Under the pieces are notes generated by a model that saw nothing but the letters and a program-made list of their open reading frames with translations, was not told the DNA's origin and did no database searches. Made by a program: the position numbers and the translations under genes. From positions 8,623 to 72,622 of IMG/VR virus record IMGVR_UViG_3300021498_000001: 64,000 nt of DNA. One strand, given 5' to 3'. The first letter of the stretch is position 1. Each line of letters opens with the position of its first letter. Positions 3,238-56,272 of this stretch are shown in pieces. Source of the DNA: a virus.

Positions 3238-3486
3238 ATGCCAAAGAATGTTAGACAGTCCAAAACAAGCAAAGCCAGAAGCCAGACCACTCAATCTAAG
3301 ACTGAATTGAAAACTCAAACTCAGTCTAAAGCTGTCAAACCTAAAAAGAAGCCTATCAAGACTCTGAGTGACGCACTAATCCATATAAATGTTGCAGGCT
3401 CTAATGTTCGCAGTGTGCATGAGTTTGAAGACAAATTCGTGATTGACCTAAAGACTGGCGAAAGGCTTGTTGTAAAGAAAAGCTAA
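3238..3486 (+). CDS. Small basic protein upstream of TerL (function unknown; TerS position)
   Basis: Lys/Ser/Thr-rich N-terminus; its stop overlaps the TerL ATG. Confidence 0.6.
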   Translation: MPKNVRQSKTSKARSQTTQSKTELKTQTQSKAVKPKKKPIKTLSDALIHINVAGSNVRSVHEFEDKFVIDLKTGERLVVKKS

Positions 3487-5051
3487 TGCTACTTGAAAGT
3501 TCTGGCAACAAGCAATTAGTTGCTTCATTGTGTAAAGTCTTCCAAAAAGACCCTTTAGTATTCCCAGAAAAAGTCCTAGGCGTTACTCTTTGGGATAAGC
3601 AAAAAGAAATAATTAGAGCAGTATTTGAGAATGAAAGAGTAGCTGTACCTGCATGCAATCATGCAAGCAAGACTCATACTGCTGCATGTCTGGCTCTTGC
3701 ATTCTTATTTACATATTATCCTTCCAAGGTTATTACTACCTCTGCATTCAAAGAGCAAGTCAAGGATGCTTTGTGGAGTGAAATCAAGTCAAGGATAAAA
3801 TATTCTATTGTCCCTTTGGTAGAAGATAAATACGTTACATCAATGGGTCTTTATTTAGGCCCAGATTGGTATGCTATAGGTTTAAGACCTCAGGATAATT
3901 CACAAGAGGCATTTCAAGGGAGGCATAGTGAGAATATTTTGATAGAATTTGATGAAAGTAGTGGGATTAGTGAAAATATCTGGGAAGCAGCCGAAGGATT
4001 AATGACTTCTACTAACTGTCACTGGGTAGCTCTTGGAAACCCATTCGATCCTCTATCTCCTTTTGGCGAGGCATGTCACAGCGATGATTGGGTAACCATA
4101 CACATCTCTGCTTATGATACTCCCAATGTCAAAGCAGGTAAAAATATCTATCCAAAACTAATGCCTTGGGACTGGCCCGAAAAGAAAAAAAGACAATGGG
4201 GCGAAGATAGTGCAATATATCAAGTCAGGGTTTTGGGCAGATTCCCAGACAAACAAGAAGAGAGACTTATACCCTTTTCTCTTGCCAAACAAACTGTGGA
4301 GAGAAAGTATGAGAGAAATTCAAGTGAGCCTTTAATAATAGGTCTTGATCCTTCTGGTTTGGGAAGGGATAAGACTGTTTGGGTTATGAGGCAAGGACTT
4401 TCTATTGTTGCAATTAAATGGGTCTTGAGTGCTACAGATGAAGCAATAGGAAGGAAGACCTTGGATTATGCAAGAATTTACAAAAGCTCTGATAATCCTA
4501 CAGTCATAAATATAGATGCTGGATGGGGCAAAGGGATATATGAATATTTGAAAAAGCATGCAGATCCAGAGAAAGTCAAGGTCAATGCTGTATATCTTTC
4601 TTCTCAAGCTCAAGAGAAAGAAGAGTTTTATAATCTAAGGACAGAAGCTGCTTTTAGACTTAGAGAGTCAATAGAAAAAGGCTTATGTTTGTCTCCTTCT
4701 GCAAGAGTTGTTAAAGATATGTGGCTTGAGGATATAACTGCTCCTAATTTTGAAGAGGATGCTAAGAGTGGCAAAAAGAAATTAGAAAGTAAGAAGCATT
4801 TAAAGAAGAGATTGGGCCGTTCTCCAGACTTTCTAGATGCTACATTGCTTACATTTGTCTCGGATTATCGTGTTGCTCCAATTATGGTCTCTGCTACTCA
4901 TTTTGAGCTAGAAAACAAGACTCAAGAGCAAGAGCGAAGCGAGGGTTCAATCTATTCTGTTTTCCCCTCCGCTGTGCGGCAATTTAAGGTTATAAGAAGA
5001 GCGCCTCTATTCTATTTTAGGCGAAATATACGCAGTTCATTTGGAGGATAG
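3486..5051 (+). CDS. terL: Terminase large subunit
   Basis: Q-motif (LWDKQKEI), variant Walker A (ACNHASKT), Walker B (ILIEFDES), motif III GNP, RNase H-like nuclease (GLDPSGLGRD ... SPDFLDA). Confidence 0.92.
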   Translation: MLLESSGNKQLVASLCKVFQKDPLVFPEKVLGVTLWDKQKEIIRAVFENERVAVPACNHASKTHTAACLALAFLFTYYPSKVITTSAFKEQVKDALWSEIKSRIKYSIVPLVEDKYVTSMGLYLGPDWYAIGLRPQDNSQEAFQGRHSENILIEFDESSGISENIWEAAEGLMTSTNCHWVALGNPFDPLSPFGEACHSDDWVTIHISAYDTPNVKAGKNIYPKLMPWDWPEKKKRQWGEDSAIYQVRVLGRFPDKQEERLIPFSLAKQTVERKYERNSSEPLIIGLDPSGLGRDKTVWVMRQGLSIVAIKWVLSATDEAIGRKTLDYARIYKSSDNPTVINIDAGWGKGIYEYLKKHADPEKVKVNAVYLSSQAQEKEEFYNLRTEAAFRLRESIEKGLCLSPSARVVKDMWLEDITAPNFEEDAKSGKKKLESKKHLKKRLGRSPDFLDATLLTFVSDYRVAPIMVSATHFELENKTQEQERSEGSIYSVFPSAVRQFKVIRRAPLFYFRRNIRSSFGG

Positions 5052-5623: not shown

Positions 5624-6943
5624 ATGCCTTATTTCATTAAAAAATCTCCTGAAAAACCTGCACGTTTCTACGAAGCAACTTCTACTAGACTCTCTTTGCC
5701 TGGACAAGAGGAAACCAAATCTGAGGATTGGCCTGGGTGGAGAAGATTAACAGGTGCAGCTCCTCTTAGAGAACTTAAGCCTGGAATCTTTGAAAGAATG
5801 AGTCGTATAGCCAAATGGCTGTATGACTCTAATCCTCTTGCAAAGAGAATTATTGAATATATCAAGAATTTTGTTGTAGGTGAGGGTATCTACTTTGATG
5901 CAGAGGATGCCAGAGTTAAAGAGATACTGGATGCATTTTGGTATGATGATGTTAATAATTGGCCTCTAAGACAGCATGACAGAATCTTAGAGCTCTGTTT
6001 ATATGGAGAGAGTATCTGGCCTGTCACAGTAAATCCTTCTAATGGACATGTAAGATTGGGATTTATTGACCCTTTAGATGTAAAAGAAGTCGTGCCTAAT
6101 GAGGACAATTGCTTGATTCTAGAAAAGATAGTCTTGGCAAGGCCAATTCATGGAAAGACAGAGCTGTCTATTATAAGGCGAGATGAAAATCCAAATAGCG
6201 ATACTTTTGGATATCTCTCAGGTGAATGTTTCTTCTTCGCAATCAATAAAGTAAGTAATGCAACAAGAGGAGCAAGTGACCTCTTGCCTCTAATAGATTG
6301 GATAGATGCCTACGACCAGTTTCTCTTTACAAGACTAGAGCGACAAATGAATATCAATAACTTCTGCTGGGATGTTACATTAGAGGGAGCAGATAAGTAT
6401 GAGATAGAGCAATTTCTTAAGAATCTGCCTCCACCTACTCCAGGTACAGTAAGAGTTCACAATGAAAAGGTAACTTGGAATGTTGTTGCGCCTAAACTTG
6501 AGGCAAGAGATGCAAACCAAGAGAGCAGGCTTATAAGAAACCATATCCTAAGTGGTGCAGGTTTTCCTCCTTACTATTTTGCAGATACAGAAGGTGTGAG
6601 AGCTGTTGCTTATGAGCAGGCATTTCCTACAGAGAAAATGCTTATTACCAGACAGAAATACTTCAAAGCAATGATTGAGTATGTCTTTAACTTTGTTATA
6701 GACCAAGCCATTATTCACAAAAGACTGCCTGCAAATGTAAATCGCAAGTTTGAAATTGTATTTCCAGAAATATCTCTAAGGGATGTAGAGAGATTAAGCA
6801 GGGCACTTAAAAATGTAACTCTTTCTTTAGAGCACTTACAGCAAAATGGATTGGTTACAAATAGAGAGGCAAAAAAGATAATAAGAAACTTGCTTAGTCA
6901 AATGGGATTGGAGTTAGAGGAGTTAAATGGAAGAAAAGGATAA
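5624..6943 (+). CDS. Portal protein
   Basis: Follows TerL; 439 aa; NPLAKRII..NFVVGEG, LYGE, RGASDL and FEIVFPEI motifs typical of phage portals. Confidence 0.85.
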   Translation: MPYFIKKSPEKPARFYEATSTRLSLPGQEETKSEDWPGWRRLTGAAPLRELKPGIFERMSRIAKWLYDSNPLAKRIIEYIKNFVVGEGIYFDAEDARVKEILDAFWYDDVNNWPLRQHDRILELCLYGESIWPVTVNPSNGHVRLGFIDPLDVKEVVPNEDNCLILEKIVLARPIHGKTELSIIRRDENPNSDTFGYLSGECFFFAINKVSNATRGASDLLPLIDWIDAYDQFLFTRLERQMNINNFCWDVTLEGADKYEIEQFLKNLPPPTPGTVRVHNEKVTWNVVAPKLEARDANQESRLIRNHILSGAGFPPYYFADTEGVRAVAYEQAFPTEKMLITRQKYFKAMIEYVFNFVIDQAIIHKRLPANVNRKFEIVFPEISLRDVERLSRALKNVTLSLEHLQQNGLVTNREAKKIIRNLLSQMGLELEELNGRKG

Positions 6944-9900
6944 TTTAGATAGGCTAAGCGAGCTTCATTTAGAGCAGTTTAGAAAAGAAGGGATTGATTA
7001 CGACCTTAAGAATCCTCAAACTAGATGGAAACAACTCTATGCAGACCTTCGTTACATCTTTGACTCTGGTCTGCCTAGAATTTGGAAAGGGAAAAAATGG
7101 GGAGATTGGACAGAAGAAGACTGTCTTAGATATGCAGGCAAGATTATAGATGCCTTGCGTTCAGTTTATTTTCCTTTAATCCCACCTTCCAAGAATGACC
7201 CCAGATACAACACAAGCTACTGGAAAGCCTATCGCAAGGCAGAAGAGAAGGGATATGTCAAATCCAAGCCTCCCAAATCAGAAGAACTACCTGAATGGGA
7301 TAAAAAGCGCAAAGAGATAATCAAGACCTCTTTAGAAGAAGCAGAGAGAAAATTAGATGGACTTTATTTAACACCTCCACATGGTGAGCTTTTCTGGACT
7401 GATGAAAAGAAGTTGCTCGTGAAAACAAAGGAGTTTGACTTATCCAAGCCTCATTATCTTATAGAAGATGGATACTGCTATGGCATTATCTCATTTAAGA
7501 AGCCTAAAGAAATAACTAAACAGCAATTCTTCTCTGAAGAGTTTAAGAAAAAACATCGCATTTTGGATACAGAAGCTTGGCAATGGTGGAGAATGACGAG
7601 GGACAATGCAGTGGAGCCTAAGCTGTATGCTTATGAGATAAAAGAATTCAAACCTTTTGATGTACCTAGAAGAGTGAGAGTGCCTAAGGGCATACAGGTT
7701 ATTGTGAAGGCAGACAATATTGAATTTGTGAGTGAAGATGAAGAGAAACCTGCAAAGATTGATTGGCCTACAATGGCAGCAAAGGAGGCAAAGACTGATT
7801 TTATTAAATTCTATGGTACAAAAGGATATATAGAAGAGGAGAGTGAAAGACATAAATATCATACCTGTATTTTATTTTCTCTAAATGACACAAATATCTT
7901 GTTAGATTATGGAGAAAGGCATCCAGCAGAGATAGAAGAAAGAGTGGATGTAGTATTGAACTCGCATCGGCACGTCGATCATATATGCCCTGAAACAGTC
8001 AACTTTGCTTGCCCTTTATATGTATCTCAGCAAACTTTAGAAAGAGTAGATTTTCCTCTGCCTGAAGACATTAGAGTCTATCGGCCCAGAGAACCTTTTA
8101 AAATCGACAATATAGAAATCACTGCCTATCCAGTTTACCACTCTATTCGTGCTCCTATGCATATCTTCAAAATCGAAACAGACAATCTTGCCATAGGAGT
8201 AATGACTGATTTTTTGGGATTTAGAGACAAGAATGATGAGGACTCCTTTTATCCAGATTTAGACATTGTAATTATAGATGGCAGTAGCATTACAAGAGAT
8301 TTAAGGCGATGGAGAGAAGAGCATGACGAGCCTTTTGGACATGAGAGTGTAATACACCAGATAGAAAGGATTAGAGATAAGTGTGAGAAAAATCCTGTAA
8401 TAATCCTCACTCATATAGGCAATGAAGGACTTGAGCTAGGTGATGAGAGAATTCTAGAGTTATTGTCAGAGCAATTTCCTAATATGAGGATATATGTTGC
8501 CAAAGATGGCAGTATATTTGATTTGAAGACAAAGCGATTTACAGAAGCATTCAAAGGAGAACAAATCTGCAAAGATATAGTTGCAAACTTGCCTTCCTTT
8601 ACATGGATACCTGAATTTGTAAGCATAACAGGCTCTACCTTATTTACAAAAGACCATGCGCCTAGAGATTTAGATGTGATGTGCAAGGCAGAAGAAATAA
8701 ATGGAAAGTGGTATATACCTGTGGATACTTCTTTATTACTTAAACTGCAACGAGCGTATCAATATGCAACAAAGAAAGTATTAGGTAAGGCAATTAAAGC
8801 TGACTTTCCTCCTCCCTCGTTGATAGGCCCAAATTGGTGTGTTGATGATAAAACTGAGATTTTAACCAAGGATAGAGGTTGGGTATTATTCAAAGACTTA
8901 AAGGAATCAGACTTAGTAGCTACAGTATCAAAGGACGACTATTTAGAATTTCAGAAACCAATAAGATATTTCTCTAATTTCTATAAAGGAAAAATGATTC
9001 ATATCAAGAATAAGAATATAGATTTATTGGTCACTCCAGAACATAAGGTTATCTATTATCCATGTTTCACGAGAAATAAAAAACGAATCATATCTGAAGA
9101 ATGGCAGATGATAGAAGCTCAGAAACTCCTTGAAATGAAAGGAAGAATTTATTTGAAACTAGGATGCAAATGGAAAGGTGATGGTGATTCAATATTTTGG
9201 ATTCCACCCTGTATTGGATACAACATGAAGTTAGAACCGCCAGTACCAATTGATATGGAAGATTTTGCTATGTTTATGGGATGGTATTTATCTGAAGGAA
9301 GTGTTCACATTACACCAAAACAAGTTTACTCCGTCTGTATTGCACAATATGAAGACTCTCCTAAGTTTCAAGAATTAAAGGAATTACTATCTCGCTTGCC
9401 ATTTGACTTTAAAGAAGTAAGAGGGAACCAAGACAATCCAGAAAAGATTACTGGATTTTGTTGCAAATCGAAACAGTTAGCTTTATATCTTAAACAATTT
9501 GGTAAATGTTATGATAAGTTTATTCCTAATGAAATTAAGAATCAAAAACCAGAAATACTGAAAAGATTTTTAGAATGTTATTTCTATGGCGATGGACATT
9601 TGAGAAAAAGAGCAAAAGGACTGTATGTTGCTAAAACTGTATCTGAACGCTTAGCTGGTGACCTGCAAGAAATTGGCTTGAAGCTAGGAATTAGAGTCTC
9701 CTATAATAAGGAAGGAAATGGAAAACGAAGAAGAATCTACATTGGTAATTTCACTCTTGAATCTAAGTGGAAAAGCAAAATGAGGCAATTATGTCGTGTT
9801 TGTCTTGAGCTTGGACATGTAAAGGAAGTACCATATGAAGGAATGATATATGCAGTTGAAGTGCCTAATGGTATTGTTATTGTTAGGAGAAACTTTAGAT

Positions 9901-12900
9901 TTTGTGTGACTGGTAACTCTTCCATTCCTGCCTACGATTTAAAACTTGTCCCCAGAAAAAATCCAGAAGTAAGAAGGACAGGAGAAGAAGAGTTTGAAGA
10001 GAAGGTTTATGGAGTGGATTTTAAAGAAAAGCTACGCCTTCGCACCAAATCCAAAGATATTGAAAAAATGGCTCAACAGTCCCTAGAAGAAGATAAAGTT
10101 AAACCTCTTCGCTTCTTTATGCCTCTCAAACCTATAAGAGTGCAGGGCAAACATGGAGAAAGGAATACGCCTGAAAGATTGGTAGAGCTATTTGAGCCTC
10201 AGCATTATCCTGTATATAACTCAGTCAAGAGGGATGGTTTCAGGGCCATCCTAATGTACGATGGAAATAAGGTTGTCATTTACTCAGAAGATGGCAATGA
10301 CATTACAGACCAATTGCCTACAATTGTAGAAGCAATCAAAAAACTCAAGGTTAAATCAGTCATTCTGGATGCTGAGATTGAACTCTGGGAAAATGGACAG
10401 CATCATCCAAGAGAGGCAGCAATTGCTAAAATTCACTCCAAAGCAATAGAAGATGAGAATTTGATTGCCAATATTTTTGACTGTGTCTATCTAAATGGCC
10501 AAGACTTACACAAAGAACCTTTTGAAAAGAGATGGAAGGCATTAAATTCTATTGGCATTAAATATTCAAAGGAGACCAGCCTAGACCCAAAGCAGAAACT
10601 CAATATCATACCTCATATCCCATGCAATACACCCAAAGAGCTTCTTAAAGAGACAGAACGAATGAGAAGAGTGAAATCGAGTGAAGGATGTGTGGCCATT
10701 GCACACAATGCTGTATATCCTTTGGATGGAAAGCCAGAAGGTAACTCTTTCTGTAAGTTTCATAATAATGTGGTTGTGAGAGGGATAGTAGTACAACCAG
10801 TCGAAACACGAACCAGCGGCGTATTTAATTTGACCTGGGGTTGTTTAGCAGAAGGCCACGAAATCTTAAAGAAAGACCAGACAGAAGTAGGGCCTTATGA
10901 AAAGGTCTTAGTTATAGGCAGCACTTTTGCAGCACCTTATGTAAAAAGAGGAGCTGTTATTGAGGTTGAGTGTGAGACAATCAATCATATCATCCATGAA
11001 GATATAGAAGGCAAACCTATAGAGATTACAGCTTGGGCACCCAGATTTATGCGAGTGGTACCTGGAGCAAAGCCAGACAGCATAGATGATATTTTAAGAA
11101 AAGCAAGGAAAGAAAATCATGTTTTGCAGATTAAAATAGTTAAACCTGATGGCACAGTAGAGTACAGAGAGTCAAAGAAAGAACTCCTTTGCTTTCTTAC
11201 AGAAGAACCTACTTTAGAGAGTCAGATAAGCGATAGATTTGGCGCAGCCAAATATGCTGTGTTCTTTGAACCTGCTACTTATCACTTTGAAGCAGTAGAT
11301 TTGTCTAATTTTAGAACAGGTGTAGAGATTGCAGATTTAATAAAGCAGCATCAGGCAACTAAAGTCATTACAAATCAAATAGGAAGATTTAGCAGAGACG
11401 AATTAGAAAAAGCTGGCATTGAGATTGATTTTGCAGAGGGAAGGGTGAGTGATTATTTGAAAAAGGAGCTGGGAGAGAGTCCTTTGGTAAAGGAGGCAGA
11501 AATAAGGGAGCAGGGTGACCCATATATGCAGTATTTCGATGAGGATAAAGAGCATAGAGTGTGCAACCAGAGGCATTATAGATTTGCTCTTAAGGACATA
11601 CTCAAAGAGACTGGAATGGAAGATGAATGGCCTGATGAGTGGACAGAAGAAGATTGGCGAAAAAATTGGGATTCTTGGAAAAGAAGAGTATATCCAAAAT
11701 TAAGGAAATATTTTGAAACTCATCCTGAATATGAGCATAGTCCTTCAACTCATGTAGATCAAAGATATGAGACAGATAGTGGTGCATTGATTGGATGGAC
11801 TATATTGGATTCACTGCCAGATAGACCTAAAGTGCCTCCTCTTTCTTTGGAGGATGCCAAAAAGTTTGATAGAGATCCTTCTAATTGGAAGATTGATTGG
11901 AACACAGGTGAATGGGCTTGGCGTGAAAAAAAAGGTGGAGCAAAGGCAAGAATTTCAATTGTAGTAAGGAAAAAGTCACCAGAGCCCCTAGACTGGCTCA
12001 CTTTTGAGGGTGAACAGCCCCCCAAATCGGTTGGTGCAACAGCTTATGGCCCTGCTATCTTTACTCACATTACTCCTTTAGGAGTAGTTGAGACGCTCAG
12101 CCAGAAAAGTTACATGCATGAATACTATCTCACATTTCCCAATTTTAAATGGCATATAGTATTTCGTCTTTTGAGGAAACCATTTGTGCAGAAAGAATCA
12201 TTTAAGGAAGCACTGAGAACACAAGATTATGAGCGTCTTTCAGAAATGGTTGAATTAGAAGAAGGCGAATCTTTAGAAGAAGGCTTGTATCTAGAAGCTA
12301 AGAGATTTATTCCAGTTTCTAAGGGCGGGTGGGGGCTGGAGGAAAGTGGATGGGTAGCTATTTATGTCACAAGAGAACCCTATGTTATTTCAAAGCGTGC
12401 AGTACAATTGAAATGGATTCCACCTTATCCCTACAGCGCCCTCCCTCGCCATATCAAGAAACAAATCCCACCTGAATATCACTACTGGAAAGAAAAGGAT
12501 ATGCAAAAGCGCATAGAGATAAGGGATGCTCTTGTTAAAGCTATCAAAGAAAAGAAAGTTGTATTGAAGGAGAGTATTGTAAGAGACTTTAAACTTGACT
12601 TTCACTGGAGCGAACCTGCTGAGTTGGTGAAGCGTCGCAGCCCCGCCCACAAACATTGGGACCTTCGAATCGATGGCGACCTCAAAAAGAAAACAGGTTA
12701 TATCTTCCACGCAGTCTTAGAACTCAATCCCTTAGAAGTTGACTCTACTTCTGCATATCTCAAGAAATGCAAAGGAGATGAAGGCGGCATTGATTGGATG
12801 AACGTGGGCAAAGAAAAGACAGTTAAATTCACAAAGGGCCCAGGAACATTTGAAAAGAATGAGCCAGGGTACATAAGAGCATTGGATTGGGGCAGAGTTT

Positions 12901-13037
12901 TAGTGCTTGAAGACTCTCCTCTCTTTAAGAAGTTTCAATTTAAGGGCAAAAAATTAAAAGGTATCTGGATTATGTACAGAAGCAGTCCAGATACAGATAT
13001 TTGGATATTTGAAAAGAGTAAGAATATAGGCAAATAA
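6927..13037 (+). CDS. Giant multidomain protein: ASCH-like, MBL-fold hydrolase, Pol-beta-type nucleotidyltransferase, intein, ATP-dependent DNA ligase, NifB/NifX-like, and two LigD phosphoesterase-like domains
   Basis: GLYLTPPHGEL (ASCH-like); SHRHVDH (MBL HxHxDH, ~7965); ITGST..DLDV (NTase); KRDGFR (ligase motif I, 10227), DAEIE, IFDCVYLNG, EGCV; ISDRFG..VITNQIG..LEKAGI (NifX-like); HVDQRYE..WLTFEG and HWDLRID..DWG..FKGKKLKG (PE-like). Confidence 0.8.
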   Translation: MEEKDNLDRLSELHLEQFRKEGIDYDLKNPQTRWKQLYADLRYIFDSGLPRIWKGKKWGDWTEEDCLRYAGKIIDALRSVYFPLIPPSKNDPRYNTSYWKAYRKAEEKGYVKSKPPKSEELPEWDKKRKEIIKTSLEEAERKLDGLYLTPPHGELFWTDEKKLLVKTKEFDLSKPHYLIEDGYCYGIISFKKPKEITKQQFFSEEFKKKHRILDTEAWQWWRMTRDNAVEPKLYAYEIKEFKPFDVPRRVRVPKGIQVIVKADNIEFVSEDEEKPAKIDWPTMAAKEAKTDFIKFYGTKGYIEEESERHKYHTCILFSLNDTNILLDYGERHPAEIEERVDVVLNSHRHVDHICPETVNFACPLYVSQQTLERVDFPLPEDIRVYRPREPFKIDNIEITAYPVYHSIRAPMHIFKIETDNLAIGVMTDFLGFRDKNDEDSFYPDLDIVIIDGSSITRDLRRWREEHDEPFGHESVIHQIERIRDKCEKNPVIILTHIGNEGLELGDERILELLSEQFPNMRIYVAKDGSIFDLKTKRFTEAFKGEQICKDIVANLPSFTWIPEFVSITGSTLFTKDHAPRDLDVMCKAEEINGKWYIPVDTSLLLKLQRAYQYATKKVLGKAIKADFPPPSLIGPNWCVDDKTEILTKDRGWVLFKDLKESDLVATVSKDDYLEFQKPIRYFSNFYKGKMIHIKNKNIDLLVTPEHKVIYYPCFTRNKKRIISEEWQMIEAQKLLEMKGRIYLKLGCKWKGDGDSIFWIPPCIGYNMKLEPPVPIDMEDFAMFMGWYLSEGSVHITPKQVYSVCIAQYEDSPKFQELKELLSRLPFDFKEVRGNQDNPEKITGFCCKSKQLALYLKQFGKCYDKFIPNEIKNQKPEILKRFLECYFYGDGHLRKRAKGLYVAKTVSERLAGDLQEIGLKLGIRVSYNKEGNGKRRRIYIGNFTLESKWKSKMRQLCRVCLELGHVKEVPYEGMIYAVEVPNGIVIVRRNFRFCVTGNSSIPAYDLKLVPRKNPEVRRTGEEEFEEKVYGVDFKEKLRLRTKSKDIEKMAQQSLEEDKVKPLRFFMPLKPIRVQGKHGERNTPERLVELFEPQHYPVYNSVKRDGFRAILMYDGNKVVIYSEDGNDITDQLPTIVEAIKKLKVKSVILDAEIELWENGQHHPREAAIAKIHSKAIEDENLIANIFDCVYLNGQDLHKEPFEKRWKALNSIGIKYSKETSLDPKQKLNIIPHIPCNTPKELLKETERMRRVKSSEGCVAIAHNAVYPLDGKPEGNSFCKFHNNVVVRGIVVQPVETRTSGVFNLTWGCLAEGHEILKKDQTEVGPYEKVLVIGSTFAAPYVKRGAVIEVECETINHIIHEDIEGKPIEITAWAPRFMRVVPGAKPDSIDDILRKARKENHVLQIKIVKPDGTVEYRESKKELLCFLTEEPTLESQISDRFGAAKYAVFFEPATYHFEAVDLSNFRTGVEIADLIKQHQATKVITNQIGRFSRDELEKAGIEIDFAEGRVSDYLKKELGESPLVKEAEIREQGDPYMQYFDEDKEHRVCNQRHYRFALKDILKETGMEDEWPDEWTEEDWRKNWDSWKRRVYPKLRKYFETHPEYEHSPSTHVDQRYETDSGALIGWTILDSLPDRPKVPPLSLEDAKKFDRDPSNWKIDWNTGEWAWREKKGGAKARISIVVRKKSPEPLDWLTFEGEQPPKSVGATAYGPAIFTHITPLGVVETLSQKSYMHEYYLTFPNFKWHIVFRLLRKPFVQKESFKEALRTQDYERLSEMVELEEGESLEEGLYLEAKRFIPVSKGGWGLEESGWVAIYVTREPYVISKRAVQLKWIPPYPYSALPRHIKKQIPPEYHYWKEKDMQKRIEIRDALVKAIKEKKVVLKESIVRDFKLDFHWSEPAELVKRRSPAHKHWDLRIDGDLKKKTGYIFHAVLELNPLEVDSTSAYLKKCKGDEGGIDWMNVGKEKTVKFTKGPGTFEKNEPGYIRALDWGRVLVLEDSPLFKKFQFKGKKLKGIWIMYRSSPDTDIWIFEKSKNIGK
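8838..9917 (+). mobile_element. Intein with LAGLIDADG homing endonuclease (360 aa)
   Basis: Starts CVDDKTEILT, block B VTPEH, LAGLIDADG-like FMGWYLSEG and FLECYFYGDG, block F IYAVEV, ends TGN with Ser as +1 residue. Confidence 0.88.
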
Positions 13038-13359: not shown

Positions 13360-13547
13360 TGGATTTTAGCAGATTTAGATGTCCAAAGGACAAACACTTT
13401 CTGTTTGCACAGTGCATAAAGGATGGGATGATTGAGGTAAAATGTAGATACTGCAAGACTACTTATCAGCTTAAGTTTAAGAATGGTAAACTTGTATCCC
13501 TTAAAGAAATTTATGTGCCTTTAAAGCAAGAAGACTTGACAAAATAA
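13356..13547 (+). CDS. Com-family zinc-ribbon protein
   Basis: FRCPKDKHFLF ... IEVKCRYCK resembles Mu Com-like regulators. Confidence 0.65.
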   Translation: MMDFSRFRCPKDKHFLFAQCIKDGMIEVKCRYCKTTYQLKFKNGKLVSLKEIYVPLKQEDLTK

Positions 13548-13564
13548 ATTTCAAAATATAAAAT
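13536..13564 (+). promoter_or_regulatory. Strong sigma70-type promoter for the capsid gene (TTGACA-17-TAAAAT)
   Basis: -35 at 13536-13541, -10 at 13559-13564. Confidence 0.75.
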
Positions 13565-13638: not shown

Positions 13639-16017
13639 GTGGAAGAGGCAACTTGCTGGGCTATGAATGTTTTAAGTACAAGCGATTTCTTAGAAACCTT
13701 TCAAGGCAAATTCCTTCCTTTATTAGAGTCTTCTAAAACAGGCGAAGAGTGGGATGTTGTCTTAATAGAAGCAGGCAGAAGCAAAGGAGGCAGTCAGGGA
13801 CAAATCCTTTATCCAGAAGAAGTATTGAAGAAAGCAGTCCCTCTCTTTGAAAATGCCAAATGCTATGCCTTTGAATTCAGCGGTCAAATCTATGACCACC
13901 TACCAGAAAATATCAAACAGGCAGTACCTCAAGGTTTTGCAAAGAACCTTGTCGGTTATTTCACAAATCCAAAGCTAAAGAAACTCCCTAACGGCAAAAA
14001 GGGCATTGTAGCAAGATTTCATGTCATTGCAGATTGGCTTAAATCTGCTCTCAAGAATGCAGGCAAAAAACTGCCAGAGCTGCTGGGATTCAGTATAGAT
14101 GCTGAGGGTGTAGTGGATAAAGAAAATCAGGTTGCCTTGTCAATTGACAGAGTAGATAGTGTGGACTTGGTAACATACCCAGCAGCAGGGGGCAGATTTT
14201 TAAGAATGGTTGCGTCAAGGCTTGCTGCGAGTTTGCAACAGCAGGCTAATTTAAAGACATCAAACAAAGGAGGGTTGGATATGGTAGAAGGCAGAATGTT
14301 GTTAATGATGAAAGGTTTGCAGAGTGGTCTTAAGGAGGGACAAGAGCTAGAAATCACAGATGATGTTGTCAATGCTATCTTCTCAGAGGCTCTAGAGAAA
14401 GAGGAGATTGAGGAGTCTAGGGATGAGCTGAAAGAGATTATCTCACAATGCATTGGATTCTTGAAAGAAGGCAAAGACCAGTTTGCAGAAGCTCTTTTGA
14501 ATGGGATTGTTGAGGCTAAGAAGAAAAAGAGGAAAAAGAAAGAGGAGTATCCTAGCCCTGAAGAAGAGTATCCTAAACCTCAGAAGGCTTCTATGCCTGA
14601 GCCTCAAGCTGAGCCTAAACCTGAGATGAAACCTGAGCTTGAAGAGGCAAAGAAAAAGAAGAAAGAAGAATATCCTTATCCTGAAGTACAGAAACAGTCT
14701 CAGGAATTACAGGCTCTTAAAGATGAAATTACTCGCCTCAAATTAGAGAAGTACTTAGAAGAAGCTCTTAAGGAATCTGGTCTTACCAATGTTTCCAAGA
14801 ACCAGATCAGAAGCATGAGATTTAGCTCTGTAGAGGAAATTGATAAGGCTATCCAGAACATGAAGGACTTAGAAGCTAAGTTTATGCAGGAAGCTGGCAT
14901 TTCAAGCAGGGTAGAAGCAGGTGAAACTGAGGGCGAAAAGGCATTGAAACTGCTTGAGGATGTTATTGAAGGTAAAGCTCACAGCATTAAAGAGGCTTAT
15001 GTCAGGTTTACAGGTGATACTAGAGTCACAGGCTTAATAAGAGAGTGCAGAGGTAGGGGCAAGGAAAGAATTACAGAGAGCTTAACTACTTCAGATTGGG
15101 CAGAGGCATTGGGCGATACCTTGAGGCGTAAGCTCATAAAAGAATATCAAGTTTCTGGCTTAGATGACTGGAAGAAAATCGTATCTGATATAGTGCCTTT
15201 ACCTGACTTTAGAAGCCAGCATTGGATTAGATTGGGTGGATACGGTGAGCTTCCTTCTGTATCTCAAGGTGCAACTTACACAGAGCTAACTAGCCCAACA
15301 GATGAAGAAGTGACCCTGTCTGTGAGCAAAAAAGGTGGCCTTGAATCGGTCACTATTGAGATGATAAAGAATGATGACATAATGGCAATTAGGCAGATTC
15401 CTAGAAGGTTGGCAAGAGCTGCTGCTCAGGCTCTTTACAATGCTATATTTGATGACATTCTCAAAGACAATGCAACAATATATGATAGTGTTGCCCTATT
15501 CCATTCAAGCCACAATAACTTAGGAAGCTCTGCTCTTTCTGCTTCTTCATTTATGGCAACAAGAAAGGCAATGGCACAGCAAACTGCTTATGGAAACAGC
15601 GAAGAATATCTAAACCTCTATCCAAAATGGTTGATTGTGCCAGTGGATCTTGAGGATACAGCATTCAAGATTTGCCATTCTCCTGTGTATGTAAGTGCAG
15701 CTTCTTATTACAGCGGTGGTACTGCTTCAGAGGCTGCAACCACTCCAAATATTGTACCTCAGAAATTTAAGACAGATTACATTGTTGTGCCTAGATGGAC
15801 AGATGCAAATGATTGGATCGCAGTAGCAGATCCTAATATGTGTCCTACAATAGTTGTAGGCTTCTTGGATGGGAAAGAAGAGCCTGAGATATTTATTCAG
15901 GATCAGCCTTCAGTCGGTAGTTTATTCTATGCTGATAAGATAGTGTACAAGATTAGGCATATTTGGGGCGTGGCTGTATTTGATTACAGGCCATTCTATA
16001 AGCATGTAGTGAGCTAA
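13639..16017 (+). CDS. Prohead protease-scaffold-major capsid protein fusion (Mu gpT-like HK97-fold MCP); start may be ATG 13663
   Basis: N-terminal protease-like domain (YDHL, GFSID, SVDLVTYPAAGG); charged scaffold with EEYP repeats; C-terminal TTSDW..., TIEMIKNDD, LFHSSHNN, PKWLIVP, YKIRHIWG..DYR. Confidence 0.88.
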   Translation: MEEATCWAMNVLSTSDFLETFQGKFLPLLESSKTGEEWDVVLIEAGRSKGGSQGQILYPEEVLKKAVPLFENAKCYAFEFSGQIYDHLPENIKQAVPQGFAKNLVGYFTNPKLKKLPNGKKGIVARFHVIADWLKSALKNAGKKLPELLGFSIDAEGVVDKENQVALSIDRVDSVDLVTYPAAGGRFLRMVASRLAASLQQQANLKTSNKGGLDMVEGRMLLMMKGLQSGLKEGQELEITDDVVNAIFSEALEKEEIEESRDELKEIISQCIGFLKEGKDQFAEALLNGIVEAKKKKRKKKEEYPSPEEEYPKPQKASMPEPQAEPKPEMKPELEEAKKKKKEEYPYPEVQKQSQELQALKDEITRLKLEKYLEEALKESGLTNVSKNQIRSMRFSSVEEIDKAIQNMKDLEAKFMQEAGISSRVEAGETEGEKALKLLEDVIEGKAHSIKEAYVRFTGDTRVTGLIRECRGRGKERITESLTTSDWAEALGDTLRRKLIKEYQVSGLDDWKKIVSDIVPLPDFRSQHWIRLGGYGELPSVSQGATYTELTSPTDEEVTLSVSKKGGLESVTIEMIKNDDIMAIRQIPRRLARAAAQALYNAIFDDILKDNATIYDSVALFHSSHNNLGSSALSASSFMATRKAMAQQTAYGNSEEYLNLYPKWLIVPVDLEDTAFKICHSPVYVSAASYYSGGTASEAATTPNIVPQKFKTDYIVVPRWTDANDWIAVADPNMCPTIVVGFLDGKEEPEIFIQDQPSVGSLFYADKIVYKIRHIWGVAVFDYRPFYKHVVS

Positions 16018-42349: not shown

Positions 42350-43597
42350 ATGAAAAAACAAAGCCTTGCGAAAATCGATGAAGTAATCCATTCACCTGAG
42401 ATTAAGAAAGGATTAGACTTATTGCCAGAAAGAATTAATAAAAAGCTCTTTATAATGACATTTTATAATGCTGTTATGAGAAATCCACAATTATTGAATT
42501 GTACTAAAGAAAGTCTAATCAATGCGTTCTTACAATGTTGCGAGTGGAGACTTGAGCCTAGCTTGGGCAAGGTATATCTTGTACCTTATAAGAACAATAA
42601 AAAGCCAGGTAATCCATTAGAGTGTCAAGCTCAAATAGGGTATAAGGGTTTAATTGAGTTGGCTAATAGAATTGAGAATGTACAAGTCAGTGCACACATT
42701 ATTTATGAAAATGATGAGTACGATATTCAATACGCACCCGAAGAGAAGATATTTCATAGGCCCAAGATTACAGGAGACAGAGGCAAGCCAATTGGAGTCT
42801 ATTGCATTTGGAAAAGAAAAGACTCTACATCATATTTGTTTATGACTTTGGATCAAGTCTATAAAATAAGAGAGCATAGCATTTCTTATCGCACAGCCGA
42901 AATGAAAGGCACTAAAGACTCGCCTTGGCATGTCTGGCCTGAGGCAATGATAAAGAAGACAGTAATAAGACAGAAAGCTAATTATGAAAGACTCCAATCA
43001 AGTTTTGCAGAAATACTTGAGAAGGAAGAAGCCTTTGAATTTGGAGATACATCAATAGCATTGAATGAAGAACCTAAACCTATTGAGATGCCAGAGAACA
43101 AGACAACAGAGTCATTAGAAGAAGTCTCATTTGAGGATAAGCTAAATGAATTCTGCACCACTCATAATCTAGATATACAACTTGTTAATGCCTATCTAGA
43201 TGAGTGTATAGAAATGTTTGAAATGTCTAAAGAAGCAGTATTGGAAAGGGCCATAAACAATCCAGATGAATTCAAAGAGCAATTTGATAGGTGGCTCAAG
43301 ATAAATGAGGCTATGCAAAAGAATGCTGAGGGAGGGTCGTTTTTAGAGAAATTGAAAGAGGCACAAAGTAAGCCTAAGGAGAATGCAGAGAATATATTTG
43401 ATGTTAAAGGCAAGCTAGAAATGTGGCAGAAGCAATTTATAAATGAGCTGAAAAATGCTGTGAAACAAGGATTAGTAACAGAAGAAGCAATTAAAGCCAA
43501 GATGATGGAACAAGGTTTAAAGAGCCTCTTAGACTTGCCTTCTTTAAATGATGCTGTGAAGTTTTACATGAGTTGTGTTTCAGATAAAGCCAAATAG
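42350..43597 (+). CDS. recT: RecT-family single-strand annealing protein
   Basis: NPQLLNCT..LEP..YLVPY..QIGYKGLIELA..SPW..EAMIKKTVIR. Confidence 0.88.
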   Translation: MKKQSLAKIDEVIHSPEIKKGLDLLPERINKKLFIMTFYNAVMRNPQLLNCTKESLINAFLQCCEWRLEPSLGKVYLVPYKNNKKPGNPLECQAQIGYKGLIELANRIENVQVSAHIIYENDEYDIQYAPEEKIFHRPKITGDRGKPIGVYCIWKRKDSTSYLFMTLDQVYKIREHSISYRTAEMKGTKDSPWHVWPEAMIKKTVIRQKANYERLQSSFAEILEKEEAFEFGDTSIALNEEPKPIEMPENKTTESLEEVSFEDKLNEFCTTHNLDIQLVNAYLDECIEMFEMSKEAVLERAINNPDEFKEQFDRWLKINEAMQKNAEGGSFLEKLKEAQSKPKENAENIFDVKGKLEMWQKQFINELKNAVKQGLVTEEAIKAKMMEQGLKSLLDLPSLNDAVKFYMSCVSDKAK

Positions 43598-46042: not shown

Positions 46043-46045
46043 TAA

Positions 46046-46116
46046 GCGGAGGTAGCTTAAAGGCAAAGCATTTGGCTTCCAGCCAAAGGATACAGGTTCG
46101 AGTCCTGTCCTCCGCT
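46046..46116 (+). tRNA. tRNA-Gly (anticodon TCC), CCA not encoded
   Basis: Acceptor GCGGAGG/CCTCCGC, D stem GCTT/AAGC, anticodon stem TTTGG/CCAAA with loop CTTCCAG, T arm ACAGG-TTCGAGT-CCTGT, discriminator U. Confidence 0.92.
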
Positions 46117-46156
46117 TCTTTTTTTTCTAAAATCGAAAAGAAGAGGAAGGGGCTAG

Positions 46157-46680: not shown

Positions 46681-47140
46681 AAAACAACCTATATGGTACC
46701 GCAAAGGCTTTTCTACAGGTGGCAGATATGATTGGGAATTAGAGGCAGAAATAAGAGGTTATTCTTCTGTTAAGGAAATGCTTGAGGATTTATACATCAA
46801 AAAAAACATGACTTATTATCAAGTTGCAGATTATCTGGGGGGCATTAGTGCTGGCGGTGTATTTAATAAACTCAAACGATTGGGAATTTCAAAAGGATAT
46901 AAGAGACATTTTAACAATAAATTTGAAGAACTTTTCCCCAAAGTCAAAAAGTGTTTAGAACAAGGACGATATTTGAAAGACTGTCTTGCACTAATAGGCT
47001 ATAAATCTTGCGGCAATTGCAATGAAGGGTTTGTGGGATGGATGAAAAGGCATAAAGGATTAGTAAATAAAGGGTGCAGAAAATATCCTAAATGGGTGTT
47101 TGAAGAAAATAAACAAGGAGAACAGGATGCCAGAAAATAA
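46673..47140 (+). CDS. HTH DNA-binding protein immediately upstream of the Tas-like gene
   Basis: LYIKKNMTYYQVADYLGGISAGGVFNKLKRLGI; AAGGAG RBS before MPRKQ. Confidence 0.65.
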   Translation: MPRKQPIWYRKGFSTGGRYDWELEAEIRGYSSVKEMLEDLYIKKNMTYYQVADYLGGISAGGVFNKLKRLGISKGYKRHFNNKFEELFPKVKKCLEQGRYLKDCLALIGYKSCGNCNEGFVGWMKRHKGLVNKGCRKYPKWVFEENKQGEQDARK

Positions 47141-48023
47141 AATACAGAAACCTATAAGGCAATTAGTGCGAAGCATTTATGATTTACAAGAAGATAGAAA
47201 GAGAATTGGTCTTAGGCTAGTGAATCATTTTATGGTGAAAATGGGAATTGCGCCTTCCCAGAAAAGAGGCAAAGCGAGGCAGTTATTAGACCAGTTAAAG
47301 CAAGAATATAAGAGAATCACAGACGGTCTCCTAGAAGAGCCTAATGTTAGAAAGCTGTTGAAAGAGAAAGGATTGATTACCGATGAAGCAGAGATGATTT
47401 TGGTATCCATGTATTTTGATTTGTTGAAGAGAGAAGAGCAACAAGTTAAGGCTTTAGAAAAGGTATTGGAACAAGAGCGTATTTATACAACCTTTCTGAA
47501 GAATATCAAAGGTATTGGACCTCTACTAAGCGGTGTGCTTATATCGGAGATAGATATAACAAAGGCTAAATATGCAAGCTCTCTTTGGAAGTATGCGGGC
47601 CTTGATGTAATCACTTATTATGATGAAAATAAGAAGCAGTGGATAACAGAAGGCAGGCGAATGAAAACAACCCATTTAGAGGAGAGAGAGTATATAGACA
47701 AAGATGGGAAGAAGAAAGTTAAGAAGACTCTCACTTTCAATCCATTCCTAAAAAGCAAGTTGGTAGCAGAAAAGGGTGTAGCTCACAACTTCATAATGCA
47801 CAGAACAGAACCTTATTATAGCATGTATTTGAACTACAAGTTTAGAGTGAGAAATAAGCCTGAGTATAAAGATGAATCTGATGGGCATATTCATAATATG
47901 GCTAAGAGGTATATTGCAAAGCAGTTTTTAATTGTGTATTATAAGAAGGCAAGAGAACTGGCTGGATTGCCTGTATATAATCCTTATGCAGAGGCAAAGC
48001 TAGGAATAAAGCATGCTGTATAG
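47127..48023 (+). CDS. Nop-domain/IS110-related RNA-binding protein without nuclease domain (TasA-like)
   Basis: AAGGAG RBS then ATG 47127 (298 aa); coiled coil followed by LKNIKGIGPLLSGVLISEID..SSLWKYAGL..FNPFLKSKL..HIHNMAKRYIAKQFL; no N-terminal DEDD/RuvC or HNH domain; abuts the dual-repeat array. Confidence 0.85.
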   Translation: MPENKIQKPIRQLVRSIYDLQEDRKRIGLRLVNHFMVKMGIAPSQKRGKARQLLDQLKQEYKRITDGLLEEPNVRKLLKEKGLITDEAEMILVSMYFDLLKREEQQVKALEKVLEQERIYTTFLKNIKGIGPLLSGVLISEIDITKAKYASSLWKYAGLDVITYYDENKKQWITEGRRMKTTHLEEREYIDKDGKKKVKKTLTFNPFLKSKLVAEKGVAHNFIMHRTEPYYSMYLNYKFRVRNKPEYKDESDGHIHNMAKRYIAKQFLIVYYKKARELAGLPVYNPYAEAKLGIKHAV

Positions 48024-50074: not shown

Positions 50075-50653
50075 TTAGAAAGTTTGAGACATTTCTTTAG
50101 ATATTGCTTCTAACAAGACATTGGTTGGTATAGCAATGCTCTTGGTTGTATAAGTTTTGTTGTTAGCACTTATAATATCATAACTCTTTATCCAATTCTT
50201 TCCATTCATGATCCAAGCTCGTTTTAACAACAAGACTGGTAATAGGTAAACCTTCTTGGAGGACATAATAGCATAAACTATATAGTCAGATTGACAAGTG
50301 TAAAGCCAACCAGGTTTGCGTTGTTCCCAGATACTCCATATTTCTAACAATATGTCACCATAATCCTTTCTTCGTTTCTTCTCATCAATCGTTAAAATTC
50401 TTCCATCTTTGAAATATAAGATTTTATCTATTCCTTTCTTTTGTAAATCTAGATCTTCTACAAGTTTAATTCTCCTCAAACCAGGAAATATGCGATAGTA
50501 GAAACTATCAAATAATTCATTCTCTCGTTGATCTAGTGAATATTGTAAATCTACATCAAAATCGTTATATTTCATTGCCCCATGCTTTCCAGCCCTGTCG
50601 AGTCTCTCGTGCAAAAAGCTCAAGATACTTTCCTTTGGGGCACATTTTTTCAA
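50075..50653 (-). CDS. PD-(D/E)xK-like nuclease (putative endonuclease; start may be MKYNDF)
   Basis: DLQKKGID..IDEKKR..DILLE..PGW..DYIVY. Confidence 0.6.
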   Translation of the reverse strand: MKKCAPKESILSFLHERLDRAGKHGAMKYNDFDVDLQYSLDQRENELFDSFYYRIFPGLRRIKLVEDLDLQKKGIDKILYFKDGRILTIDEKKRRKDYGDILLEIWSIWEQRKPGWLYTCQSDYIVYAIMSSKKVYLLPVLLLKRAWIMNGKNWIKSYDIISANNKTYTTKSIAIPTNVLLEAISKEMSQTF

Positions 50654-51710
50654 TCATTTCATATATTAATTTGGGTTTTTCACTATGCTTGCCTCTTCTC
50701 TCACGAATTATCGAGCTAAATCTTGAATCTGGTGGAGGAACAGGGTAGTTCCCTTTAACACCTACTAATAATAACTCATGCTGTATTCTGAACCAAAATC
50801 CCATACCTATAACTTCTTTATCCCATACAGCGCAAGTGCGATATTTGAAGCCCCAGGCTCTCATAACTTCCAAAGCTTCTTCTAACTTTGGAGCAGTTGC
50901 CCACAAAAATAATACTGCATTTTCTGCAGATGGTATTTGTAATTGCTTTATTTCATCTAGAGTCATAGTTGGGTACTGATTTTCGATTGCTCTATTGATT
51001 GCCATTGAAAACTCATATTGCCAAGGAGGATCGGCAAGTATAACATCATATTTTTCATTATTTGTCAAAATTGATGGCTCGGTGTATAAATCTCTTATTA
51101 TCTTTTGTCTTGCTTTCTTGATTGATAATCTATCCTCCTCAATAACCTTGATTATCTTTTTCTTCTCTTCAGGTGGCTTCTTATAAAGCTCAATAATATC
51201 CTGTTTTGGGTTTTGTTTGAGGATTTCTCTAGGTATGTGTTGTGTTAACTCTTCTACTGCTTGGGCTAGAAGGGCGTCGTTATAAACTGTTCTGCTTGTT
51301 ACTCCTGTTTCTTCAGCTATCTTTTGAGCAGTCTCAGAAGGATCTGAAATTTTTTCAGATCCCTTACTGTAAGGTATTTGGCCCCCATGACTCTGTTTCT
51401 CCAGCAAATACTTCTTGCCTCTTAAAACACTCACCTCAAAAGGATCCAGATTTCTCCTACTTAATTGGTTATCAATAACCCAATTAATAGCTGATTTTCT
51501 ATCAGGCAAGGAGATATACCTAAAGGTTGGTTTAATATTGTGTTTTTTACAAATCTCTAATCGGTGGTGTCCATCCAATAATATATCTTGCTCTTTCCAT
51601 ACAACTAATGGTTCAGTAAGGCCTTCATTTAAAATTTTTTGCTCGAGTCCCTGAAATTCATCTGGCTTTAATGGTGGTATCAAATTCATAATATCTGGAT
51701 CGATTTTCAT
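50565..51710 (-). CDS. ParB-like N-terminus plus MT-A70-family adenine methyltransferase
   Basis: LLDGHHR and NQLSRRNL (ParB-like); ILADPPW, LFLWAT, WGFKY, HELLLVG, HSEKP, LELFAR..WGNE (MT-A70). Confidence 0.9.
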   Translation of the reverse strand: MKIDPDIMNLIPPLKPDEFQGLEQKILNEGLTEPLVVWKEQDILLDGHHRLEICKKHNIKPTFRYISLPDRKSAINWVIDNQLSRRNLDPFEVSVLRGKKYLLEKQSHGGQIPYSKGSEKISDPSETAQKIAEETGVTSRTVYNDALLAQAVEELTQHIPREILKQNPKQDIIELYKKPPEEKKKIIKVIEEDRLSIKKARQKIIRDLYTEPSILTNNEKYDVILADPPWQYEFSMAINRAIENQYPTMTLDEIKQLQIPSAENAVLFLWATAPKLEEALEVMRAWGFKYRTCAVWDKEVIGMGFWFRIQHELLLVGVKGNYPVPPPDSRFSSIIRERRGKHSEKPKLIYEMIEKMCPKGKYLELFARETRQGWKAWGNEI

Positions 51711-55993: not shown

Positions 55994-56272
55994 ATGCCAG
56001 AGAAATACTTCCAGATTAGCAGAAAAGGAGATTATATTTACTGCACTCTGTTTGAGCATGAAATGGGTAAAATTACAAAGAAATGCATAGAAGTTGCCTA
56101 TGAGGTTGACTATGCTCAAGACTTGATTTTGAAATTAGAGGCTTCAAGACAGAATGCAGATAAGTTTGGCGCTCTTTTCATAGGCATGGTGTTAGGTTCA
56201 AACAAACAGCTTTGGGATGACACAATCAATGCATTGAAACATGGTGTTGATTTAATACTTGAAAATGCGTGA
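55994..56272 (+). CDS. Hypothetical protein
   Basis: 92-aa ORF overlapping the next gene. Confidence 0.5.
   Translation: MPEKYFQISRKGDYIYCTLFEHEMGKITKKCIEVAYEVDYAQDLILKLEASRQNADKFGALFIGMVLGSNKQLWDDTINALKHGVDLILENA

Follow-up and report, generated by a model that had tools for sequence, protein, structure and literature searches.

What would a tailed virus do with a single protein of 2036 residues, made up largely of domains that may process or seal nucleic-acid ends and encoded between its portal and capsid genes? The question is raised by a gene of an uncultured tailed virus in a window of 64,000 nt, the whole stretch of DNA analysed here, which covers positions 8,623 to 72,622 of the IMG/VR record IMGVR_UViG_3300021498_000001 (72,622 bp, linear, completeness estimate 88%). 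A first-pass annotation of the window, made from the sequence alone, had described this gene product (P0001) as a multi-enzyme protein of the head module for end processing and sealing, and this description is upheld: several of its domains were recovered by family models, fold and profiles, and its gene slot is conserved at 18-19 loci. We propose, with a probability of roughly 45%, that the giant protein is a polyvalent enzyme of the head module that heals and seals nucleic-acid ends and is delivered together with the virion DNA. That it travels in the virion is plausible, though not proven. Coordinates of all features are collected in Table 1.

The phosphoesterase-like module and the ligase

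The C-terminal 507 residues gave no Pfam match and, as a single sequence, no match in the PDB. An AlphaFold2 (AF2) model of this region, built from a 34-row alignment, had a mean pLDDT of 88.9, and a Foldseek comparison with the PDB returned LigD 3'-phosphoesterase (PE) structures as all of its top seven matches (E 7e-6 to 9e-4). VIA-align placed the PE structures on model residues 356-505, equivalent to residues 1885-2034 of the giant protein and termed PE2, which was superposed on 3P43 with Z 15.3 and an rmsd of 2.2 over 120 of 124 residues and on 3P4H with Z 14.5, the next unrelated row having Z 4.6. A 34-row profile (A3) searched against the PDB matched the same two structures (3P43, E 1.2e-6; 3P4H, E 4.7e-6). 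Fold and profile both lead to LigD PE structures, and the eight-stranded LigD PE barrel of PE2 is confirmed at the level of the predicted model.

The AF2 model displays a second barrel, PE1, while all structural alignments fell on PE2. By hhalign, PE1 and PE2 are related with 89% probability (E 2e-6), an alignment that pairs H1609, D1611 and R1613 with H1910, D1912 and R1914, and W1690 with W1957; moreover, the spacing of the PE1 motif EPLDWLTFEG equals that of EDHPLAYADFEG in 3P43. Of the two LigD phosphoesterase-like domains previously proposed, PE2 is therefore the one backed by structure and profile, and PE1, recognised by its shared motifs and its match to PE2, is probably a second PE-like barrel, with less certainty. 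The motifs in question are THVDQRYE (1608-1615) and EPLDWLTFEG (1686-1695) in PE1, and HKHWDLRID (1908-1916), LDWGRV (1986-1991) and KGKKLKG (2006-2012) in PE2. Key residues are H1550, H1609, D1611, R1613, E1686, W1690 and E1694-G1695 in the former barrel and H1893, H1910, D1912, R1914 and W1957 in the latter. Among 120 relatives, 117 have H1609, 118 have D1611 and 116 have R1613.

The two barrels flank a segment termed MID, the most conserved part of this region, whose conserved residues are W1809, P1818-Y1819, S1837, L1839, P1840, Y1853-W1854 and R1866, with W1854 kept in 96% of rows. A wide structural search of the PDB found no fold match for MID or for the helical insert of PE1. PE1, MID and PE2 make up one module, which often lies downstream of a ligase.

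Compared with members of the LigD PE superfamily (PaePE, 3N9B/3N9D; CkoPE, 3P4H; MbaPE, 3P43; Methanocella PE, 5DMP), the module shares the barrel fold, the Mn-ligand His/His/Asp set and the phosphate-binding Arg in both barrels, the 'xP..[YW]..FEG' spacing in PE1, and the linkage to an ATP-dependent ligase. Unlike them, it consists of two tandem barrels joined by the conserved MID of about 80 residues, carries an insert in PE1, is encoded in a viral head module, and replaces the active-site His by Glu (PE1) or Gly (PE2) and the Tyr by Trp. From these alignments the barrels appear PE-like, with the metal site intact and the phosphate site changed, and are not strict members of the PE enzyme family. 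A first look at the virus's own record with PF13298 (LigD_N) gave no candidates, and this Pfam family matches 1 of 46 relatives and not the giant protein; since PE2 is a true relative, we attribute the miss to a limit of the tool. A BFVD search returned one marginal, unnamed match (E 7.7e-4).

Upstream of the module lies a predicted ATP-dependent DNA ligase with adenylation and OB domains. Its motif I is the K1101-R-D-G that had been noticed earlier (residues 1101-1104), and the Pfam match to the adenylation domain bears out the assignment. The OB region has no Pfam match; phmmer alignments to 9DFA and 3RR5 extend across it as far as the motif PRFMRV. The closest PDB relatives are archaeal Lig1-type ligases (9DF9, E 5e-13; phmmer), and the PF01068 match in the giant protein is the only one in the 72.6-kb record. 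Between ligase and module, the NifX-like domain that had also been proposed was recovered just above the family cut-off, and it is present twice in the homologue P0006.

Like bacterial LigD, the giant protein unites a ligase, PE-like domains and a candidate nucleotide-adding domain in a single chain. Unlike LigD, its ligase is nearest to the archaeal Lig1 type, and it carries additional metallo-β-lactamase (MBL), ASCH-like and NifX-like domains and an intein. The giant protein is not a LigD, because no AEP-type polymerase or primase-polymerase family was found in the whole protein (Pfam, E<=1) and a search of the record, 88% complete, gave no Ku (E<=1). Of the LigD parallel drawn by the first-pass annotation, the joining of ligase and PE-like domains remains; the parallel is otherwise incomplete, and the PE sites are altered.

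The N-terminal half and the intein

The MBL-fold hydrolase was expected from its HRHVDH motif (residues 347-352), and both PF13483 and PF12706 match the domain above their family cut-offs. Residues H347, H349, D351, H352, H405, D428 and H496 are invariant in alignment A1, so that the HxHxDH motif and the downstream His/Asp metal ligands of an MBL hydrolase are predicted to be present. A search of the PDB with this region returned chance-level rows only.

Downstream of it, the motifs TGSTLF (568-573) and RDLDV (580-584) had suggested a Pol-beta-type nucleotidyltransferase. In 17 diverse sequences, the G, D-x-D, K, R and G of this segment are invariant, the S nearly so, and the later Asp is kept in 15 of 17. 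A hidden Markov model (HMM) of the domain matches 61 of 169 stored proteins and 9 of 22 IMG/VR module genes, and where it was mapped (P0021, P0010, ANMV-1) the domain directly precedes the ligase. A language-model Atlas gave a lead of 0.91 to NTP_transf_2/Polbeta clusters. The region had no PDB match as a single sequence or as an A6 profile, and Pfam at E<=10, run on eight sub-segments including this one, gave nothing useful; a search for a stand-alone homologue found none, the profile search yielding one 166-aa protein without a Pfam family. The conserved GS..DxD..D motif agrees with the earlier proposal, while its fold found no match by Pfam or PDB profile; a nucleotidyltransferase domain is probable on motif conservation, its Pol-beta type being putative. 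In P0005, a Dam methylase domain (PF02086) lies between the nucleotidyltransferase-like domain and the ligase.

This domain is split by a segment of 360 residues that the first-pass annotation had taken for an intein, correctly as judged by its ends, its endonuclease and its precise absence from homologues. The N-terminal splicing region (residues 638-709; TIGR01445, E 1e-3) and a LAGLIDADG domain (879-938; PF14528, E 2.5e-7) were identified; the intein begins with C638 and ends with N997, S998 being the host-protein residue, and its penultimate residue is Gly, not His. The segment is precisely missing in P0002, P0003, P0005, P0006 and P0007. P0002 and P0003 (about 75% identical, 1676-1677 residues) lack exactly residues 638-997, and the giant protein without the intein would have 1676 residues after splicing. 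The segment that the intein interrupts shows 94-97% identity between this virus and that at locus L004, and the intein sits seven residues ahead of the Asp conserved in the nucleotidyltransferase-like domain. P0004 (2032 aa) carries another, different intein within its MBL HxHxDH motif, and P0045 has one within the MID motif. Inteins usually sit in essential motifs, so the three intein-bearing sites are likely to be functional, and all three likely point to selection on function.

The first 142 residues are restricted to close relatives and had no match in a PDB single-sequence search, in Pfam (E<=10) or in the language-model Atlas; a complex prediction with the portal protein gave no verdict (score 0.00). 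The next segment behaves as a mobile domain, being found at different positions in P0009, P0011, P0012, P0015 and P0019. Its profile matched in the PDB only 2DP9 and 1WK2 (E 0.09-0.1, full length), both of TTHA0113, which we take to be an ASCH-like protein, and 2 of 8 relatives match Pfam ASCH, at E 0.1 at best. The segment noted earlier is a mobile one, and its identity as ASCH is tentative.

The gene slot, the module family and its partners

The giant ORF lies, as had been reported, between the portal gene, whose end its start overlaps by 17 nt, and a gene for a fused prohead protease and major capsid protein, from which it is separated by a 106-aa ORF; a tail tube gene follows further downstream. 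Against L004 its dN/dS is 0.10 overall and 0.03-0.11 in 9 of 11 domains, those with computable dS. The giant ORF is a real gene under purifying selection.

L004 and L006 share the order terminase, portal, big ORF, protease/capsid. Searching IMG/VR for the MID motif yielded 22 loci; L013 was left out because it lies on the contig of L006, as was one member of every near-identical pair (L023, L024, L027). At the other loci, portal and capsid relatives were identified by PHROG scans, a local iterative search having proved too weak. Among 26 ORFs upstream of the module gene at 18 other loci, portal, minor head and terminase families were found (portal phrog_2662 in 7, phrog_113 in 5 and phrog_12 in 4; minor head phrog_115 in 6); among the 25 of 39 upstream families listed, every named one belongs to head or packaging and several are nameless. 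The 28 downstream ORFs, from 19 loci, matched head maturation protease (phrog_9427 in 6, phrog_976 in 5) and major head (phrog_617 in 6) families, and among the 25 of 26 listed also a 'virion structural protein' family in 4 and a 'hydrolase' in 1. The head-module position is a trait of the family rather than a peculiarity of this genome.

When 1.84 billion representatives (50% identity clusters) were searched with a profile built from four close relatives, the C-terminal module was found in 805 proteins at E<=1e-3, of which 545 reached E<=1e-10. Among 155 stored proteins that match locally, 92 have PE1, MID and PE2, 37 have PE1 and MID, and 19 have MID and PE2; the module ends no more than 40 residues from the C-terminus in 87 of the 155. 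A search of 185,579 species genomes found the MID pattern in only two short contigs of metagenome-assembled genomes.

Pfam was run on a sample of 46 relatives, obtained by taking every third one of the 147 best. Partner domains were the PF01068 ligase in 21, an XkdF-type Peptidase_S78_2 in 11, Dam methylase in 8, MBL and 2H phosphoesterase in 3 each, RNA_ligase in 2, and LigD_N (E 7.3e-9), PNK3P (a 3'-phosphatase), UDG, C5 methylase and others in one each. These predicted partners have DNA or RNA end repair and DNA protection as their theme.

The same sample bears on two other explanations. In the first, the giant protein counters defence systems that act through RNA or nucleotide signals: its MBL domain and PE-like barrels would break down alarm signals (cyclic nucleotides or oligonucleotides) or heal 2',3'-cyclic phosphate ends, and its ligase would reseal cleaved tRNA. 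Cyclic nucleotides are degraded by Apyc1, a phage protein of the MBL fold, a non-canonical substrate is allowed by the altered PE active site, and the 2H phosphoesterase (3/46), RNA_ligase (2/46) and PNK3P (1/46) partners suit such a role, as do the signal-degrading domains of polyvalent proteins discussed in PMC5512222. We nevertheless consider it quite improbable, given that the ligase, with its OB domain, belongs to a DNA-ligase family and has archaeal replicative ligases as its closest relatives, that the Pfam scan found no 5'-kinase domain in the giant protein, and that the Dam, C5 methylase and UDG partners act on DNA.

In the second, an ordinary replication or recombination ligase lies by chance in a late operon, and the PE-like barrels and MID are non-catalytic, DNA-binding or scaffold-like. 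It is, after all, the sole ligase of the record, it lacks the Lig1 N-terminal DNA-binding domain, which accessory DNA-binding domains could replace, and PE2 is degenerate in over half of the family. We consider this very improbable, given a position conserved over 18-19 divergent loci and PE1 metal-site residues that are near-invariant in 116-118 of 120 relatives; furthermore, module-only proteins and protease fusions without a ligase exist, PF01068 being missing in 25 of 46 relatives.

The protease partner was examined at L026 (8221-10047; also L027), which encodes a 608-aa protein with PE1, MID and a degenerate PE2 in its first 475 residues and, C-terminal to the module, an XkdF prohead-protease match at residues 486-598 (E 1.3e-29). 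That the Pfam XkdF matches are PE2 itself was considered and rejected: the match comes after PE2, and the fusion is therefore a true one. In L025 and L029, weak XkdF matches are found in the next downstream gene. This suggests that some genes annotated as XkdF-like proteases may carry an unrecognised PE-like module.

Proposed delivery with the virion DNA

The proposed delivery would run as follows. The giant protein would be loaded into the procapsid along with the protease and capsid proteins and would enter the host together with the DNA; there, the barrels and/or the MBL domain would remove blocks or damage from 3' ends, the nucleotidyltransferase-like domain might add nucleotides or fill in, and the ligase would seal the break, so that nicks and breaks would be repaired, or genome ends joined, ahead of viral gene expression. 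Like the first-pass annotation, we infer virion packaging, genome circularisation and the repair of restriction or Cas cuts as possible parts of this role. The XkdF fusion fits a location inside the capsid, because a prohead protease must be within the prohead, and this fusion together with the precedent of polyvalent proteins favours capsid loading.

Phage polyvalent proteins near virion genes are described as predicted capsid cargo in Iyer et al. 2017 (PMC5512222), where the virion-packaged N4 RNA polymerase is cited and signal-degrading domains of such proteins are discussed. The giant protein resembles them in joining many unrelated enzymatic domains in one giant protein, in the domain shuffling among its relatives, in its portal and head gene neighbours and in its Dam methylase partners, and by its multiple domains and virion-gene context it is a polyvalent protein in that description, MuF not being found. 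The same text names no LigD, ASCH or DNA ligase domain in the part available, and it notes a paucity of polyvalent proteins in archaea, whereas the sole GenBank carrier of the module is the archaeal virus ANMV-1.

The ANMV-1 protein, an 'ATP-dependent DNA ligase' of 866 aa (AJP62006.1; L001 3200-5800), has a ligase followed by PE1-MID-PE2 (BLASTP E 2e-27 and 8e-20). It is much shorter than the giant protein, lacks the MBL, ASCH-like and NifX-like domains and the intein, and has lost the H-x-D of PE2, and the neighbours of its gene are dissimilar to the portal and capsid genes of this virus. At its N-terminus a GG..DID..DL pattern resembling that of the nucleotidyltransferase-like domain can be seen by eye, and the nucleotidyltransferase HMM gave no score. 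The word 'ligase' occurs 0 times in the main text of the ANMV-1 paper. Searches of a paper library gave no description of a ligase/PE head-module protein; supplements, such as that of PMC5512222, may hold such architectures.

Several points weigh against delivery of an end-healing enzyme, beginning with the chemistry of the barrels. In CkoPE, according to PMC3082917, His9, His15 and Asp17 bind Mn and Arg19 and His51 bind phosphate; the H51A variant retains <1% activity, and Tyr55 assists, Y55A keeping 23%. PE1 has Glu1686 at the position of His51 (E in 84 and H in 9 of 120 relatives) and Trp1690 at that of Tyr55 (Trp in 118 of 120). PE2 residues H1893, H1910, D1912 and R1914 align with the CkoPE Mn ligands and Arg, and Gly1953 (adjoined by E1952) and Trp1957 stand at the His51 and Tyr55 positions in the hhalign register, a sequence alignment; the wider family keeps equivalents of these four residues in 49, 46, 56 and 77 of 117. 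As both barrels lack equivalents of His51 and Tyr55, and H51A of CkoPE is <1% active, 3'-phosphoesterase chemistry is not assured. The AF2 model of the nucleotidyltransferase-like domain had a pLDDT of 61 and was unusable, Foldseek giving no match below E 2.5. Pfam and PHROG scans found no MuF or other known capsid-targeting domain in the giant protein, and a late-operon gene need not encode a virion component. Among 50,697 GenBank phage records only ANMV-1 has the module, and the family is absent from cultured phages. Finally, with a record that is 88% complete, a need for end joining is conjectural.

A role at packaging time in the producing cell also fits most of the same data. The same enzymes, placed beside the portal and terminase, would then remove 3' blocks and seal nicks in replicated DNA so that packaging is not arrested, and nothing would be delivered. 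The giant ORF is co-transcribed and overlaps with the portal gene, it carries the record's only ligase, RecT-type recombination would leave nicked, branched DNA, and the head-module position fits this role as well as it fits delivery; in T4, nicked DNA is packaged poorly. Against this, the prohead-protease fusion points to an internal location and the Dam methylase partners (8/46) suit the protection of entering DNA, and we regard action confined to packaging as unlikely.

The nearest match of the large terminase is that of a Methanosarcinales virus (32% identity), which has no giant repair protein, and the nearest capsid match is from a Microcystis phage. TBP and PCNA, looked for as clues to the host domain, were not found. 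Sigma-70-like sites are not enriched (42 seen against 54.9 expected); terminators are not enriched either. The top sigma-70-like site of the first 20 kb falls in the 280-bp gap 5' of the protease-capsid gene. Within the head/tail structural block, one gene encodes a sulfotransferase and an S-adenosylmethionine (SAM) methyltransferase in a single protein, and L004 has an ORF of similar size and position; a very long ORF 3' of the tail tube gene presumably encodes a tape-measure or giant tail protein.

Table 1. Features of the window in order of position, with the basis of each assignment.
Feature	Residues	Position (nt)	Strand	Basis
Large terminase gene, upstream		3486-5051		phrog_2, E 1.3e-32
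Portal protein gene, directly upstream of giant ORF		5624-6943	+	phrog_10963, E 6.8e-41
Giant ORF P0001	2036 aa	6927-13037	+	open reading frame
N-terminal region, no family	1-142	6927-7352	+	conserved in alignments A1, A11
ASCH-like mobile domain (weak assignment)	145-268	7359-7730	+	PDB profile, Pfam on relatives
MBL-fold hydrolase (predicted)	312-500	7860-8426	+	PF13483 E 9e-9, PF12706 E 1.1e-6, phrog_392 E 1.1e-9
Nucleotidyltransferase-like domain, N-terminal part (G569-S570, D581-x-D583, G634-P-N-W637)	550-637	8574-8837	+	motif conservation
Intein with LAGLIDADG homing endonuclease (predicted)	638-997 (360 aa)	8838-9917	+	TIGR01445, PF14528, absence from homologues
Nucleotidyltransferase-like domain, C-terminal part (conserved Y-D1004-L)	998-1040	9918-10046	+	motif conservation
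ATP-dependent DNA ligase adenylation domain (predicted)	1095-1279	10209-10763	+	PF01068 E 2.6e-20 (matched aa 1095-1267)
Ligase OB domain with motif-VI-like PRFMRV (predicted)	1280-1385	10764-11081	+	phmmer alignments to 9DFA, 3RR5
NifX/Nitro_FeMo-Co-like domain	1431-1512	11217-11462	+	PF02579, 27.6 bits vs cut-off 26.3
PE1, LigD-PE-like barrel with ~55-aa helical insert (probable)	1543-1752	11553-12182	+	motifs, hhalign, AF2 model
MID	1795-1875	12309-12551	+	conservation
PE2, LigD 3'-phosphoesterase-fold barrel (model)	1885-2034	12579-13028	+	AF2 fold match, profile match
Sigma-70-like site (TTGACA, 17 nt, TAAAAT)		13536-13564	+	11/12 matches
Prohead protease/major capsid protein fusion, downstream		13639-16017	+	PF25209 E 4e-47; phrog_4523, phrog_133, phrog_15531
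Sulfotransferase and SAM methyltransferase	400 aa	16605-17807	+	PF13469 E 4.6e-11; PF08241 E 9.5e-12
Presumed tape-measure or giant tail protein	2767 aa	22013-30316	+	
RecT recombinase		42350-43597	+	E 2e-36
tRNA-Gly(TCC)		46045-46118	+	
IS110-family transposase		47100-48023	+	weak match
MT-A70 methyltransferase		50565-51710	-	E 1.8e-28
Calcineurin-like phosphoesterase		56259-56939	+	

A bolder proposal, which we put forward as doubtful, is that the tandem PE-like barrels with MID define a large undescribed family of capsid-carried repair proteins of uncultured tailed viruses, perhaps archaeal ones for the most part, whose virions would deliver a pre-charged ligase complete with end-cleaning and nucleotide-adding domains, so that the entering genome would be mended or circularised without host enzymes, and that the His-to-Glu and Tyr-to-Trp changes of PE1 represent a new catalytic variant. 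Known capsid cargo, to our knowledge, comprises polymerases, methylases and inhibitors; if the giant protein travels in the capsid, this would be the first virus to bring its own DNA break-repair machine into the cell, which, if true, would be a general answer to host DNA-cutting defences and to environmental damage of virion DNA. Present in hundreds of uncharacterised virus proteins, the C-terminal module offers enzymology an altered active site of the PE superfamily, and its fusion or adjacency to XkdF opens a way of testing whether anything beyond a protease or scaffold is encoded between portal and capsid.

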